DNA from: a virus
Lineage: Duplodnaviria > Heunggongvirae > Uroviricota > Caudoviricetes
Length of the DNA stretch: 6,391 nucleotides
Strand: one strand, 5' to 3'
Virus record (IMG/VR): IMGVR_UViG_2778261391_000004
Shown: positions 1 through 6,281 of the stretch, piece by piece
Layout: every line of letters starts with the position of its first letter
Position numbering within the stretch: position 1 is the stretch's first letter
Position numbers and translations under genes: made by a program
Notes under the pieces: model-generated
Told to the model about the DNA's origin: nothing
Databases searched by the model: none
Seen by the model: only the letters and a program-made list of their open reading frames with translations

Positions 1-1038
1 AGTAAAACCGTTCAGCTTAATCACGGCTGGAACGATGAGGCATTTAATCCAAAGGATGCGCAGCGTTATCTCTGCCGCATCTGGAGCCTGATGCGCACGG
101 CATTCAAGGATAATGATTTACAGGTCTACGGTTTGCGTGTCGTCGAGCCACACCACGACGGAACGCCGCACTGGCATATGATGCTTTTTTGTAATCCACG
201 CCAGCGTAACCAGATTATTGAAATCATGCGTCGTTATGCGCTCAAAGAGGATGGCGACGAAAGAGGAGCCGCGCGAAACCGTTTTCAGGCAAAACACCTT
301 AACCGGGGCGGTGCTGCGGGATATATCGCGAAATACATCTCAAAAAATATCGACGGCTATGCACTGGATGGTCAGCTCGATAACGATACCGGCAGACCGC
401 TGAAAGACACTGCTGCGGCTGTTACCGCATGGGCGTCAACGTGGCGTATCCCGCAATTTAAAACGGTTGGCCTGCCGACAATGGGGGCTTACCGTGAACT
501 ACGCAAACTGCCTCGCGGCGTCAGCATTGCTGATGAGTTTGACGAACGCGTCGAGGCTGCACGCGCCGCCGCAGACAGTGGTGATTTTGCGTTGTATATC
601 AGCGCGCAGGGTGGGGCAAATGTCCCGCGCGATTGTCAGACTGTCAGGGTTGCCCGTAGCCCGTCGGATGACGTTAACGAGTACGAGGAAGAAGTCGAGA
701 GAGTGGTCGGCATTTACGCACCGCATCTCGGCGCGCGTCATATTCATATCACCAGAACCACGGACTGGCGCATTGTGCCGAAAGTGCCGGTCGTTGAGCC
801 TTTGACTTTAAAAAGCGGCATCGCCGCGCCTCGGAGTCCTGTCAATAACTGTGGAAAGCTCACCGGTGGTGATACTTCGTCACCGGCTCCCACGCCTTCT
901 GAACACGCCGCAGCAGTGCTTAATCTGGTTGATGACGGTGTTATCGAATGGAGTGACCCAGAGGTCGTCAGAGTGTTTAGAAACACATTAAAGCATTATT
1001 TGCCAATGTTTACTCGGCAAGAGAAGATAAGTGGCTAG
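1..1038 (+). CDS. A: Replication initiation endonuclease gpA (rolling-circle HUH nickase), C-terminal part; 5' end lies outside the window
   Basis: Frame 1 is open from base 1 (SKTVQLNHGWNDEAF...) to the TAG at 1036..1038. It contains an HUH motif (PHWHMM, 169..177) and a YIAKY double-tyrosine motif (322..336) like the catalytic tyrosines of phiX174/P2 A proteins. Codon usage is GC-rich like the phage backbone. Confidence 0.9.
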   Translation, partial: SKTVQLNHGWNDEAFNPKDAQRYLCRIWSLMRTAFKDNDLQVYGLRVVEPHHDGTPHWHMMLFCNPRQRNQIIEIMRRYALKEDGDERGAARNRFQAKHLNRGGAAGYIAKYISKNIDGYALDGQLDNDTGRPLKDTAAAVTAWASTWRIPQFKTVGLPTMGAYRELRKLPRGVSIADEFDERVEAARAAADSGDFALYISAQGGANVPRDCQTVRVARSPSDDVNEYEEEVERVVGIYAPHLGARHIHITRTTDWRIVPKVPVVEPLTLKSGIAAPRSPVNNCGKLTGGDTSSPAPTPSEHAAAVLNLVDDGVIEWSDPEVVRVFRNTLKHYLPMFTRQEKISG

Positions 1039-1252
1039 CTGATATAATTGCATAGGATTACATTGTTCGTTTGGATGGTCGGAGCTTGGAGAGAGTAACT
1101 GTCGTTCACTTGCTTTGAGTTTTTCAAAATGACCATCAGCAGCAAATTGGGAACTTCAGGGGGCTGGAGCGTGGCTATTAATCATCCGAAAAATCACTTT
1201 CTCACATTAAGGGATTGTTAGTTTGATTCAACTTTTAAAGCAACTATGGCTT

Positions 1253-1280
1253 TAGACAATGACTGATGTCATGATAGAAT
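1253..1280 (+). promoter_or_regulatory. Candidate sigma70 promoter for the methyltransferase gene
   Basis: -35-like TAGACA (1253..1258), 16-bp spacer, extended -10 TGaTAGAAT (1272..1280), about 40 bp upstream of the ATG at 1321. Sequence-only prediction. Confidence 0.3.
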
Positions 1281-1320
1281 ACATGATCGTTAGTTGAATC
1301 TTTAGCATGGTTATTTGAAT

Positions 1321-2472
1321 ATGAATGTAGTTGATTTATTCTCTGGAGTTGGCGGTTTAAGCTTAGGGGCAACTCGAGCCGGTTTCAACTTGGTTGGAGC
1401 TGTTGAACTGGATAAACATGCTATTTTTTCACATGAGTTAAACTTCCCAAAATCAACACATTTGCATCGGGATGTCTGCTCGCTTACAGCAAAAGATATT
1501 TTGTCTGCATGTGCTGTAAAGGACATTGATTGCGTTATTGGTGGTCCACCTTGCCAAGGATTTAGCACCATTGGAAAAAGGAATGCCAATGATACAAGAA
1601 ATGAATTGTATATTCATTTTTTTAGGTTGGTAAGTGAGTTATCTCCAATTTGTTTTTTGGCAGAGAATGTTCCAGGAATTATGGGTGAGAAATATAATCC
1701 AGTAAGAGAAGAAGCATTTTCTTTAGTTAGAGATGGCTATTGTTTATTACATCCAATAAGGGTTAATGCTTCAAATTATGGAGCACCTACGACACGGACA
1801 CGAATATTTTTCATGGGTTTTAAAAGAGGTTTTATTAATCAGTTAAAAGAATCTGATTTTTTTCCTAAAAATATAATAGAGCAGACTCTTGTCAAAGATG
1901 CACTCTACGGATTACCGCGAACTATAAGAAAAGAGTGGCAGACAGAGGAGCAAGGCTGGCGTTCAGTAAAAATGGATAAAGATGGTTACTATTATGAGCG
2001 ACTTTGGGGACATATACCAAATGGTGTAGGTGATGCAGAATCCATTCAAAATTTAAAGAAAGGATTGGTATCTGGCTTTTTAGGTACAGCTCATTCGGAG
2101 GAAGTGCTCAGGAGATATAGACAACTTTCATTCGGTGAAACTGATAAGATTTCGAGATCACAACGACTCAATCCTAACGGTTTTTGTCCAACTTTGAGAG
2201 CAGGTACAGGAAGTGACAAGGGGAGTTATCAGGCCGTTAGGCCAATTCACCCTACTCAAGCTAGGGTGATAACTCCTCGTGAAGCAGCTAGGTTACAAGG
2301 GTTTCCTGATTGGTTCCGTTTTCATCCTACAAAGTGGCACAGTTTTAGACAGATAGGTAATAGCGTTAGTCCGCTTGTGGCTGAGGCTATGCTATTACCT
2401 TTATACGATTACTGTTTAAAAGTTAAAAAAGAATCTTTGAATACCATGGAACGACCTTGTAGTATTCGATAA
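1321..2472 (+). CDS. DNA (cytosine-5)-methyltransferase (Dcm-like C5-MTase)
   Basis: Long ORF with C5-MTase motifs in canonical order: motif I FSGVGG (1339..1356), motif IV GGPPCQGFS with the catalytic Cys codon at 1552..1554, motif VI ENVPG, and motif X QIGNSVSP near the C-terminus. The ORF track starts at TTG 1315; ATG 1321 is the more likely start. AT-rich codon usage. Confidence 0.9.
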   Translation: MNVVDLFSGVGGLSLGATRAGFNLVGAVELDKHAIFSHELNFPKSTHLHRDVCSLTAKDILSACAVKDIDCVIGGPPCQGFSTIGKRNANDTRNELYIHFFRLVSELSPICFLAENVPGIMGEKYNPVREEAFSLVRDGYCLLHPIRVNASNYGAPTTRTRIFFMGFKRGFINQLKESDFFPKNIIEQTLVKDALYGLPRTIRKEWQTEEQGWRSVKMDKDGYYYERLWGHIPNGVGDAESIQNLKKGLVSGFLGTAHSEEVLRRYRQLSFGETDKISRSQRLNPNGFCPTLRAGTGSDKGSYQAVRPIHPTQARVITPREAARLQGFPDWFRFHPTKWHSFRQIGNSVSPLVAEAMLLPLYDYCLKVKKESLNTMERPCSIR

Positions 2473-3415
2473 AATTACTTAGATCGGAGTTGGCTCCAGA
2501 AGGAGTGGAGCCAATGTAAAACCCTAGAGTTTCATGGATGTTTTCTACTGAAGCTTCGGGTAATAAAGATTCAATATGTATCCTTTCTTTTAAAGACATA
2601 GCAGGGACGTTTATATTTTTAGGATTACTCCACTTCCCATCATAAAATGGCCAATTCTTGATTCTGGAATTATCAATAAATTTAGCTTCTTCTGTATCAG
2701 TGTTTTCAAGAACGATAGCTGTTAAAGTAACCATCTGTTGGCCATCTTTATAAACGAAAGAAGTTAATGGATGTATTCTTATGTCATTTCGACCTTTTAA
2801 TCCATGCCCTATTGCGCGTCTCATAGCATTAACTAGGAGCATAGGGTATTTTTTAAATCCGACATCTTCGACTACTGCATTCGGTGGTAAAAAATCTTGA
2901 GTCAAAATATCGTTTATCTTTTGAAATCTATATGCTCTTGGATCTCGTTCGCTCGGGTTTTTTCCCAAGGCTTCAGGGTTTGCATTTAAAGTGATCTTAA
3001 AAATGTCTTTGGGTTTTAGCTTTGTAACCAAATTAACTATTTCATTTAACTGAGCATTTAAGTCTGAAGGCGTTGCATAATCTAACCATATGATCGTTTT
3101 ATCGTCAAAGTTATAGCGATTGATGAAGTCTCCGCTCATTTCTGGGGTATCACCCAAATTTATGCAAGATAATGGTTTGTTAAACTGTTGTCGGCAATGG
3201 ACATTTTTATCTCCTTCGATAGATATCATTTTAGTCACTTTTAACAAATTATGAATTTGTTTGAAATCTTCGAGGAAAGGCCCCCCGAATCCTATATATA
3301 CATATTCGGATATGTTTGTATAATTGTTTAACCTTCTTAGGGATTCTATAAATAGATTCCTTTCAATGGCTTTGTTTTGCCGCAAATGATATGGGATGCT
3401 TCCGCCAGTACTCAT
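2423..3415 (-). CDS. Hypothetical protein (330 aa), second gene of the GHKL-ATPase operon; candidate effector or partner of unknown fold
   Basis: Uninterrupted 330-codon ORF whose ATG (3415..3413) overlaps the TGA of the upstream ATPase gene (ATGA coupling), with an AAGG Shine-Dalgarno-like element upstream. It has the same AT-rich composition as its neighbours. It contains a glycine-rich YVYIGFGGPF segment followed by acidic strand-end residues (ISIEGD, IIWLDY), reminiscent of a Rossmann-like fold, but function cannot be assigned by eye. Confidence 0.6.
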   Translation of the reverse strand: MSTGGSIPYHLRQNKAIERNLFIESLRRLNNYTNISEYVYIGFGGPFLEDFKQIHNLLKVTKMISIEGDKNVHCRQQFNKPLSCINLGDTPEMSGDFINRYNFDDKTIIWLDYATPSDLNAQLNEIVNLVTKLKPKDIFKITLNANPEALGKNPSERDPRAYRFQKINDILTQDFLPPNAVVEDVGFKKYPMLLVNAMRRAIGHGLKGRNDIRIHPLTSFVYKDGQQMVTLTAIVLENTDTEEAKFIDNSRIKNWPFYDGKWSNPKNINVPAMSLKERIHIESLLPEASVENIHETLGFYIGSTPSGANSDLSNFIEYYKVVPWYSKILF

Positions 3416-4836
3416 TGTTTAGCCTTTTTTAGAAATTCATCAAAACAATATTGACCAACCTCTGTTGGTGGTTGAGTTGCATCATCAAAGAGAAACTCTG
3501 ACACCAGTTTTATTTCACTATGTCTACGGCTAAATTTTATCTGACGTAATGGATCCGAATCCCGAGGCATTGGTAGCTTCGGTTTGAAAACTTCTCCTCC
3601 TATTGAACGTCGAACGTTCGACCAGTTTTCTCTAGGAATTGATTTAGTAAAGTCGACCTCAGTTGTTGAAACCATATTGGATGCAGTATTAATAATTTGC
3701 TTTCTTTCCTCTGCGTTACTTTTCCATTTGTTGGTAAAGTCCGTGAAGAATTTTAAACCCTCGCGCATAAAATCTTTAGTAGAAAGATATAGCTCAGAGT
3801 TACCATCAACACCTCGTTTAGTTGTAGTGATAGGTAGTAATTCAGCATTTGATGATGTGAAAATAACAACACCAGAAATTCCGATGAATTGAGTATGATA
3901 TTGTGGAACTCCAGCTTCTCCCCAACCTGTAAGCTTGGTTTTATCCGCATGTAGGACTACACGATCATTGCATATAATTGTCCAACCAGCTTTTTCTGTT
4001 GTGGAACGGCCTGATAATAAATTCTCTTCTTCTTCCTCACTAGGCAAGTTACGATAAAATCCAACTGCAACTTTAATTGAAACTCCATTTGAATTATTTT
4101 TATATACATAAGGAGCAATGCCGTCGGTATTGCCTTTAATGGCTTCTTCATCAAATATTAAATTGGTGCTATTTGGCTTAACAATACATCCATTTACTTT
4201 AACCTCAAACCCTTTTTTAATGATTAAACTATAATGATTTGCTATGATATTAATCAAAACTTCTTCAAAGCCACGATCCTTTGATAGGGATGCTTTAATA
4301 TCTTTCCTTAAATTGTTAATTTGGATGCTGACGCCTGTTTCGTTTAAGTCAACATTATTTCGCTCTAACTCCAAAGACCAGTTTTCATCATCAGCCATCC
4401 ATTCAGGAGAAATGGTAACTGAAAATTGTTCGTTTTCAGTTTTGCTTAAAATCTGAGCAGATGTCCCCATTTTGAAAATCGCTCGTTTCATTCCGATACC
4501 ATATACACCAATTGTCGGGAGATCATCCGCCTCACGTTCTGCAGGTCTACCCAACCTAAACGCATAGCTTTCCGCAAGTTTTGCTGGAATACCTCCGCAA
4601 TTATCAGTTATTCTGAAACTATTCTCATCAAATTCAATATGAGCATAGTAACCCTTGTAAACGTCTGATTTACCGAAGGTTTGCTCTGGAGTGAAATTGT
4701 TTTTTCTTAATACACCATCTAGGCAGTTATCTAGTAAATCTAGAATTGAGTCAGACAACTCAATATCTCGGGTGAGCATCTCAACAAAGAATCTTTTTGC
4801 TGGAAATGCTGCTATTTTGACGTTTGACGAAACCAT
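3412..4836 (-). CDS. GHKL-superfamily ATPase, MORC/HATPase_c_3-like (474 aa)
   Basis: Bergerat-fold motifs in canonical order in the N-terminal 120 residues: N-box DLLDNCLDG (4717..4740), G1 box DNCGG (4591..4605), G2 box GVYGIGMK (4486..4509). AAGGA Shine-Dalgarno 6 nt upstream of the ATG at 4836. Long ORF with AT-rich codon usage. Confidence 0.8.
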   Translation of the reverse strand: MVSSNVKIAAFPAKRFFVEMLTRDIELSDSILDLLDNCLDGVLRKNNFTPEQTFGKSDVYKGYYAHIEFDENSFRITDNCGGIPAKLAESYAFRLGRPAEREADDLPTIGVYGIGMKRAIFKMGTSAQILSKTENEQFSVTISPEWMADDENWSLELERNNVDLNETGVSIQINNLRKDIKASLSKDRGFEEVLINIIANHYSLIIKKGFEVKVNGCIVKPNSTNLIFDEEAIKGNTDGIAPYVYKNNSNGVSIKVAVGFYRNLPSEEEEENLLSGRSTTEKAGWTIICNDRVVLHADKTKLTGWGEAGVPQYHTQFIGISGVVIFTSSNAELLPITTTKRGVDGNSELYLSTKDFMREGLKFFTDFTNKWKSNAEERKQIINTASNMVSTTEVDFTKSIPRENWSNVRRSIGGEVFKPKLPMPRDSDPLRQIKFSRRHSEIKLVSEFLFDDATQPPTEVGQYCFDEFLKKAKQ

Positions 4837-4859
4837 AAATTATCCTTTTTCGAACAGTA

Positions 4860-4889
4860 ATTTTCGCATTCATGCATAATGGCTGTGAA
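4860..4889 (-). promoter_or_regulatory. Candidate sigma70 promoter for the ATPase/330-aa operon
   Basis: On the minus strand: -35-like TTCACA (4889..4884), 18-bp spacer, -10-like GAAAAT (4865..4860), about 25 nt upstream of the ATG at 4836. Weak match, sequence-only. Confidence 0.25.
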
Positions 4890-5034
4890 CGAAGATTCGT
4901 CTTGATTAGGCGTGCATGATTTTGCATACAAAATGTATGAAAAAAAAAGCTGCCTGTCTATGACTGATAGCCGTCTAGTTACTTGGTTTTCAAGACAAAT
5001 GCGACTGCATCAAAACCGTCTCATGAAGCGGGCG

Positions 5035-5053
5035 GGCGAGGCGGGGAAAGCAC
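5035..5053. other. cos site: 19-nt cohesive-end sequence of P2-type phages (terminase cleavage site)
   Basis: Exact occurrence of GGCGAGGCGGGGAAAGCAC, which I recall as the P2/186 cohesive end, in the expected place between the cargo region and gene Q. Confidence 0.75.
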
Positions 5054-5086
5054 TGCGCGCTGGCGGTGGTGCTGATTTTATTTTTT

Positions 5087-5123
5087 CAGCGTCTCAGCGT
5101 CTCAGCGTCTCAGCGTCTCAGCG
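5087..5123. repeat. Tandem direct repeat (CAGCGTCT)x4 plus partial copy CAGCG, 34 bp downstream of cos
   Basis: Read directly from the sequence: cagcgtct cagcgtct cagcgtct cagcgtct cagcg. Confidence 0.85.
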
Positions 5124-5219
5124 CGTCGTGACGGCGTTTGGATTGTGCGCCGGGGCGTTGGTGTGTCTGCGGGGTGTTTTGTGCGGTGGTGAGCGTGTGA
5201 GGGCGTGATGACGGGGTGT

Positions 5220-5241
5220 CAAAAAGCCGCCCGCAGGCGGC
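5220..5241 (-). terminator. Rho-independent terminator downstream of portal gene Q
   Basis: On the minus strand: 6-bp GC stem GCCGCC / GGCGGC with a 4-nt loop (5226..5241) followed by TTTTT (complement of 5221..5225), starting 5 nt after the Q stop codon. Confidence 0.65.
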
Positions 5242-5246
5242 GTTGT

Positions 5247-6281
5247 TCAGTCGTTGTCAGTGTCCAGTGAGTAGTTTTTAAAGCGGATGACCTCCTGACC
5301 GAGCCAGCCGTTTATCTCGCGGATCCTGTCCTGTAACGGGATAAGCTCATTGCGGACAAAGACCTTTGCCACTTTCTCAATATCACCCAGCGACCCGACG
5401 TTCTCCGGCTTGCCGCCCATCAACTGAAAGGGGATGCGGTGCGCGTCCAGCAGGTCTGCGGCGCTGGCTTTTTTGATATTAAAAAAATCGTCCTTCGTCG
5501 CCACTTCACTGAGCGGGATAATTTTAATGCCGTCGGCTTTCCCCTGCGGGGCATAGAGAAACAGATTTTTAAAGTTATTGCGGCCTTTCGACTTAACCAT
5601 GTTTTCGCGAAGCATTTCGATATCGTTGCGATCCTGCACGGCATCGGTGACGTACATGATGTATCCGGCATGTGCGCCATTTTCGTAATACTTGCGGCGG
5701 AACAGCGTGGCCGACTCATTCAGCCAGGCAGAGTTAAGGGCGCTGAGATATTCCGGCAGGCCGTACAGCTCCTGATTAATATCCGGCTCCAGCAGGTGAA
5801 ACACGGAACCGGGCGCGAAGGCTGTCGGCTCGTTGAAGGACGGCACCCACCAGTAAACATCCTCTTCCACACCACGGCGGGTATATTTTGCCGGTGAGGT
5901 TTCCAGTCTGATGACTTTACCGGTAGTGCTGTAACGCTTTTCCAGAAACGCATTACCGAACACCAGAAAATCCAGCACAAAGCGGCTGAAATCCTGCTGG
6001 GAAAGCCACGGATGCGGGATAAATGTCGAGGCCAGAATATTGCGTTTGACGTAAATCGGCGAGCTGTGATGCACGGCAGCACGCAGGCTTTTCGCCAGAC
6101 CGGTAAAGCTGACCGGCGGCTCATACCATCTGCCGTTACTGATGCACTCGACGTAATCCAGAATGTCACGGCGGTCGAGTACCGGCACCGGCTCACCAAA
6201 GGTGAATGCCTCCATTTTCGGGGCGCTGGCGGTCATTTTTTTTGCCGCAGGTTGCGGTGTTTTCCCTTTTTTCTTGCTCAT
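5247..6281 (-). CDS. Q: Portal protein gpQ (capsid portal vertex protein)
   Basis: 344-aa ORF (MSKKKGKTPQPAAKK...DTDND) that I recognise as the P2 Q protein. GC-rich backbone composition, followed by a terminator and positioned next to cos as in P2. Confidence 0.95.
   Translation of the reverse strand: MSKKKGKTPQPAAKKMTASAPKMEAFTFGEPVPVLDRRDILDYVECISNGRWYEPPVSFTGLAKSLRAAVHHSSPIYVKRNILASTFIPHPWLSQQDFSRFVLDFLVFGNAFLEKRYSTTGKVIRLETSPAKYTRRGVEEDVYWWVPSFNEPTAFAPGSVFHLLEPDINQELYGLPEYLSALNSAWLNESATLFRRKYYENGAHAGYIMYVTDAVQDRNDIEMLRENMVKSKGRNNFKNLFLYAPQGKADGIKIIPLSEVATKDDFFNIKKASAADLLDAHRIPFQLMGGKPENVGSLGDIEKVAKVFVRNELIPLQDRIREINGWLGQEVIRFKNYSLDTDND

Follow-up and report, generated by a model that had tools for sequence, protein, structure and literature searches.

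Is an array of octamer repeats next to the cos site of a P2-like prophage a packaging element or an ordinary repeat polymorphism? The R-sites of lambda cosB and the hexamer repeats of P1 pac, which are conserved, protein-bound and required, are likewise short direct repeats within about 100 bp of a terminase cut, and the array described here resembles them in this respect. It lies in a DNA stretch of 6,391 nucleotides (hereafter the window), a segment of a P2-like E. coli prophage that carries, in this order, part of gpA, a cargo cassette, cos, a T-tract, the array, a G/T-rich spacer, tQ and Q (Table 1). An initial reading made from the sequence alone (the sequence-only reading) had proposed that the array varies in copy number by replication slippage and that it could modulate packaging efficiency or the recognition of cos by P4-like satellites. 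We therefore asked how the array is distributed, how fast it changes, and where it stands relative to the parts of cos that matter for packaging.

A perfect octamer array downstream of cos

In the array, the octamer CAGCGTCT is repeated in tandem four times without a mismatch, and a partial fifth copy, CAGCG, follows at 5119-5123. Tandem Repeats Finder places it at 5086-5123 in the register TCAGCGTC, with a period of 8, 4.8 copies, 100% matches and a score of 76. The 32-mer (CAGCGTCT)x4 has an exact match in the window and no match in any of 200 dinucleotide-preserving shuffles. The sequence-only reading was thus right about the four perfect copies and the partial one, and also about their distance of 34 bp from cos: the P2 cohesive-end 19-mer GGCGAGGCGGGGAAAGCAC, annotated as cosL in NC_001895, matches exactly and ends at 5053, 33 nt separate it from the array, and the first repeat base at 5087 is 34 positions past the last cos base. 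Numbered from the first base of cos, the array spans +53 to +89.

A weak hairpin at 5057-5072 precedes the T-tract, the two forming a terminator-like site on the + strand. An RNA or DNA structure formed by the array itself was rejected, as neither strand, folded as RNA or as DNA, did better than shuffled sequences (z from -0.9 to +0.4). A search of Rfam with 4850-5300, up to E=1, gave no match.

The window is the entire contig NMFF01000063.1 of a draft assembly (GCA_002538255.1). Collapsed repeats typically leave short contigs such as this one (6391 bp), with conserved P2 genes at both ends, and the array might on this ground be taken for a sequencing or assembly artefact. At 37 nt, however, it is shorter than a sequencing read, and complete genomes, many independent assemblies and metagenomes contain the same array. 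These independent occurrences refute an artefact, to which we assign next to no probability.

Table 1 Features of the window, with positions counted from its first nucleotide
Feature	Position	Strand	Basis or remark
Replication gene A, C-terminal part	91-1038	+	
C5 DNA methylase	1315-2472	+	cargo between gpA and cos
Methyltransf_35, "putative O-methyltransferase"	2423-3415	-	cargo
HATPase_c_3 ATPase	3412-4836	-	cargo
55-bp cos core (-29 to +26)	5006-5060		P2/P4 identity, IMG/VR cos loci, citing papers
61-codon ORF across cos and array	5023-5208	+	judged non-coding
P2-type 19-nt cohesive-end sequence (cos cleavage region)	5035-5053	+	exact match
T-tract TTTTATTTTTT, directly 5' of the array	5076-5086	+	
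Octamer array, 4x CAGCGTCT	5087-5118		repeat finder and exact match
Partial fifth copy CAGCG running into the conserved phage-side motif CAGCGCGTCG	5119-5128		alignment with P2, 186 and P4
tQ, intrinsic terminator-like hairpin of the portal/terminase (P-Q) operon	5226-5241	-	
Portal protein gene Q, 344 aa	5247-6281	-	

The slot between gpA and cos, where the cargo cassette resides, has been described as a defence hotspot (Rousset et al., PMC9122126). PADLOC returned no match for the two minus-strand cargo genes (Methyltransf_35 and HATPase_c_3). In the related phage record PhiR44_1, a protein in the same slot is labelled "ParaMORC3" and stands beside a "Dcm protein"; the cargo of the window may be a methylase-linked MORC-like defence system.

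One unit is the norm in P2 and its relatives

P2 itself (NC_001895) reads TTTTTTCAGCGTCTCAGCGCGTCG, that is one unit followed by CAGCG, and the sequence-only reading was correct in giving P2 fewer copies. The same arrangement is found in almost all P2-like phages and prophages. None of the 120 IMG/VR contigs retrieved with the cos 19-mer has more than one unit, and all P2-type loci among them (about two-thirds) have a single one. One unit is also present at 10 of 10 places encoding an identical Q protein. At least 80% of the window is covered by 46 complete E. coli genomes; the 30 that were listed all span 6367 bp as opposed to 6391, i.e. 24 bp less, and in the one of them that was aligned the sole indel is three units at 5086-5109. 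Among isolated phages, no expanded array was seen in the best 15 of 73 closely matching records, where expanded alleles would rank at the top, nor in the listed best of 100 more distant matching records; this calls for some caution about the near-neutrality of expanded alleles, but with so few records it carries little weight. The one full-length plasmid match has one unit, the other plasmid matches covering the core only.

One-unit alleles occur in two forms, CAGCGTCT-C-AGCGCG, which is P2-like, and CAGCGTCT-G-AGCGCG. Phage 186 has no CAGCGTCT unit, only the neighbouring motif CGTCTGAGCGCC, and in P4 the unit is absent. Aligning the cos regions of P2, 186 and P2-like prophages, the check that the sequence-only reading had proposed, shows that the four-copy array is not invariant, and gives no support to the functional role that it suggested. 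The array differs here from lambda cosB and P1 pac: its repeats are not conserved across phages of the same terminase family, nearly all relatives have a single unit, and satellites sharing the terminase have none.

Expanded alleles share a single flanking haplotype

Among 5426 complete E. coli genomes, a 161-nt query had 2929 matching places, spread over 2144 genomes. Among the top-listed rows, E. coli KE50 has four units, three genomes have three, and the others have one. Pattern scans for at least 2 units added two IMG/VR contigs (three units each) and four cos-linked metagenome contigs, three with two units and one with three. The exact product of the 61-codon ORF that crosses the array was found on 57 contigs; nine of ten dissimilar places checked among these had four units at the DNA level. 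A homology search yielded P0003, an allele of seven units that was confirmed in L176, and P0104, a frameshifted version with three units. Altogether, two units are known from the three metagenome contigs; three units from three complete E. coli genomes, two IMG/VR contigs and one metagenome contig; four units from the window, the complete genome of KE50, at least nine further NCBI assemblies (at the DNA level) and two ENA metagenome scaffolds; and seven units from L176 (GCA_021564655.1).

All expanded arrays are perfect, lie next to cos, have the C junction and are followed by the flank GACGGCGTTTGGATTGTGCGCC, and so belong to one flanking haplotype. In IMG/VR, this haplotype is represented by 11 contigs with one unit and two with three. 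The cargo of the four-unit prophages is diverse (Dcm/MTase/ATPase, AAA_22, OLD-like, SIR2, DUF7380 or RT) and most of them retain the full Q-P-O-N-M-L gene set. This combination of varied cargo and mostly full gene sets suggests that the four-unit allele has persisted and spread.

The gene content of two individual prophages gives some reason for caution about the near-neutrality of expanded alleles. In L176 (7283-10946), the place of the terminase gene P behind the portal gene is taken by IS21-family genes (rve, IstB), and the seven-unit prophage is therefore defective. In L171, a four-unit allele sits beside a truncated prophage in which cox and int come directly after cos.

Octamer repeats of similar sequence occur elsewhere. 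All 13 matches to at least two units in species-representative genomes were unrelated octamer repeats in MAGs, none of them linked to cos, and 10 of the 14 metagenome matches were likewise unrelated repeats. MAG and metagenome contigs assigned to Anaerolineae, Verrucomicrobiota and Cloacimonadota (L130-L138, L142, L147, L149) carry long arrays of TCAGCGTC/TTCAGCGT variants that are not cos-linked. The likeness of these arrays to the one at cos is probably coincidental. The exact repeat sequence was not found in the literature searched.

Copy number changes faster than the surrounding sequence

Three pairs of loci (L170/L128, L172/L125 and L173/L124) differ in having four units and three units, respectively, yet the next 1200 nt are identical within each pair (0 mismatches). 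Unit number thus evolves more quickly than single nucleotides are replaced, a hallmark of slipped-strand mispairing. In agreement with this, a neighbour-joining tree built from 1250 nt downstream of the array places alleles of two, three and four units interleaved within one tight clade. The perfect arrays of 1, 2, 3, 4 and 7 units, together with the four- and three-unit pairs identical over 1200 nt, uphold the proposal of the sequence-only reading that copy number varies through slippage. Two further features are those of VNTR loci: length is polymorphic in unit steps among close relatives (1, 2, 3, 4 and 7 units), and the perfect units have a proto-repeat, since P2 and the one-unit "C" alleles read CAGCGTCTCAGCG.

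Compared with its closest E. coli relative, CP023820, the window has 0 differences over 904-5085 (4.2 kb comprising cargo and cos), 25 SNPs in 1-903, 9 SNPs in the 125 bp of 5119-5243, and few beyond. Because 904-5085 is identical while 1-903 and 5119-5243 differ, the window looks like a mosaic, the right-hand patch of which carries the array-bearing spacer; from this pattern, that spacer seems to move by recombination.

The array lies outside the cos core shared with satellites

With the ends of the two genomes joined, P2 and P4 share a single block of identity around cos, from -29 to +26, of exactly 55 bp (5006-5060 in the window). This length, re-derived here from the sequences, agrees with the 55-bp core of the literature, which passages in three later papers (PMC9594776, PMC3931495, PMC5694545) credit to Ziermann & Calendar 1990. 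Of 118 IMG/VR cos loci, the 91 phages with an adjacent portal gene and the 27 other loci, mostly P4-like, alike conserve a region from about -35 to +26; in the latter, the DNA is unrelated from +27 on. The 55-bp core is thus the only block common to P2 and P4, and to phage and satellite-type cos loci generally. The window retains it with a few substitutions in its left half.

The array starts at +53, 27 bp past the edge of the core at +26. It had been supposed to lie inside the region bound by terminase, and this is not borne out; judged by these comparisons, the array falls beyond the stretch of cos known to be needed by terminase. Nor did the suggested effect on cos recognition by P4-like satellites hold up: P4 and P4-like elements are unrelated from +27, so the array can have no influence on how a satellite's own cos is recognised. 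Cos derived from P4 is packaged at high titre by the P2 machinery (PMC9942202). The literature searched contained no statement on packaging direction or on a gpM/gpP binding site.

The left half of the core shows a peculiarity. At 5006-5034 the window reads TGCATCAAAACCGTCTCATGAAGCGGGCG, as does its closest aligned relative with the same cargo (L001), where P2 reads TGCATTAAAACCGCCCCGTGAAGCGGGCG. The substitutions (CCGTCTCATG in the window versus CCGCCCCATG in the majority and CCGCCCCGTG in P2) weaken a CCGCCC/GGGCGG inverted repeat beside the cut site.

The phage-side flank and its spacing

Beyond the core, the flank has conserved features of its own. The tQ motif was found in 82 IMG/VR loci, at 152-166 nt from cos and in 78 of them at 161-164 nt, and this holds across several sequence-divergent P2-like groups (L002-L121 and L181 examined). 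In phage 186, the tW terminator is at 164-187. The corresponding distance in the window, from the start of cos to tQ, is 188 nt. The phage-side spacer may, from these distances, be constrained in length. Overlapping the repeat unit is a motif, CGTCT[C/G]AGCGC[G/C]TCG (CGTCT plus the CAGCGCGTCG region), that is common to P2 and 186 and absent from P4. It lies just right of a T/A-rich tract, at 5114-5128 in the window, at 56-70 in L122 and at about 56-70 in L181. Its position is +60/61 in the two largest groups, and another group has it at +70/71, farther away by about one helical turn; the array shifts it from +61 to +85.

These features raise the possibility that the stretch from +27 to about +160, with its T-tract, CGTCTSAGCGCSTCG motif and G/T-rich block, is an accessory site for terminase or a host factor that requires a fixed spacing to the nick sites. 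Steps of 8 bp would then shift both distance and helical phase, so that the phage would be packaged better or worse in comparison with a satellite in the same host. The length of 161-164 nt between cos and terminator, kept in divergent P2-like groups and in 186, argues for this, as do the motif shared by P2 and 186 and its displacement by about one helical turn between groups. Cosmids with longer cos flanks were also reported to be transduced better (PMC9594776), which we count in its favour. But the whole region is missing from P4 and from other satellite-type loci, and the P4 cos is packaged by the same machinery all the same (PMC9942202). Alleles of two, three and four units, which represent three helical phases, occur together in one clade of apparently intact prophages, and deletions of about 10-12 bp are present in the same spacer in L074 and L030. 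Taken together, we regard a tuning of packaging through this flank as unlikely, although the array may have a small or modest effect on packaging of the phage's own genome.

A more specific form of the idea is that the repeat would act as a heritable and reversible dial of spacer length, affecting the phage only and moving the CGTCTSAGCGCSTCG motif and the G/T-rich block in steps of 8 bp. From the sequences at hand we consider such a dial quite improbable. If it were true, packaging of the helper's own genome would be altered while P4-like satellites, having no such flank, would be unaffected, and competition between helper and satellite would shift.

In three IMG/VR loci (L016, L021 and L047), runs of 9-12 G replace part of the G/T-rich spacer at +100 to +125. 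This homopolymer stretch is a further slippage-prone spot in the cos-proximal region.

The ORF across the array is not coding

A repeat of this kind could also be a phase-variation switch, acting on the frame of the 61-codon ORF, which is in frame with one, four or seven units, or on a promoter of the nearby (defence) cargo. The frame of the ORF is open in 44 of 56 one-unit haplotypes, whereas the other two + frames are never open; gene callers often annotate it, and protein look-ups returned mostly in-frame alleles. Such look-ups favour in-frame alleles, though, and the DNA-based searches gave two units three times, three units six times and four units once. Variable sites fall evenly over codon positions 1, 2 and 3 (29/30/27), indicating no coding constraint, and the product has no Pfam family; a coding ORF across the array was rejected on these two grounds. 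The ORF moreover spans the cos cut, and is hence split in virion DNA.

As for the cargo, the closest promoter predicted on the minus strand (4960-4932) lies some 125 bp or more away from the array, and cargo genes are wholly different among array-bearing prophages. Contingency loci have their repeats within a real CDS or in the spacing between -35 and -10; the array is in neither, and no predicted promoter overlaps it. Phase variation is largely refuted by these observations and is in our view very improbable.

A probably near-neutral VNTR in a cos-proximal spacer

The array is a real, rare and lineage-specific VNTR, and as such a fresh instance of a well-known kind of polymorphism. Most likely, it is an ordinary slippage polymorphism. 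In full, the reading that we favour, and hold to be probable from the comparisons above, is that of a near-neutral microsatellite arising by slipped-strand mispairing in the non-coding spacer between the 55-bp core and the portal-gene terminator.

The ancestral sequence would have been as in P2, TTTTTT-CAGCGTCT-CAGCG-CGTCG. As the 13-nt CAGCGTCTCAGCG within it already amounts to 1.6 octamer copies, misalignment during replication or repair could add a unit. Once at least two perfect units were present, frequent gain and loss of units would generate the allelic series on a single flanking haplotype, and homologous recombination among P2-like prophages would carry the spacer into other genomic backgrounds. 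Since the array is outside the core recognised by terminase, the extra length would be tolerated, being neutral or nearly so.

Among known systems, the array is most readily compared with simple-sequence repeats and VNTRs that arise by slipped-strand mispairing, with which it shares perfect head-to-tail units, alleles in unit steps (1, 2, 3, 4, 7), an ancestral proto-repeat as seed, and changes of copy number on otherwise identical backgrounds. It differs from them in its location, which is a cos-proximal spacer of a phage and not a host gene or promoter, and in showing no sign of contingency-locus function. The cos region of the window is in turn like those of P2, P4 and 186 in its exact 19-nt sequence and its core from -29 to +26, which tQ and the portal gene follow as in P2; it departs from P2 in having 24 additional bp at +53, outside the core and within the phage-specific flank.

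As an ordinary microsatellite, the array matters little in itself, and its main practical use would be in fine-scale typing within one lineage of P2-like prophages. For annotation, it serves as a warning: the "hypothetical protein" predicted over cos is an annotation artefact, longer or shorter according to the number of repeats. For the biology of P2-like phages, it means that an allele with at least 24 additional bp in the cos flank can persist and spread among prophages that otherwise look intact, and that nature provides an allelic series of 1, 2, 3, 4 and 7 units (+0 to +48 bp) that could be used to ask whether the length-conserved P2 cos flank plays any part in packaging.
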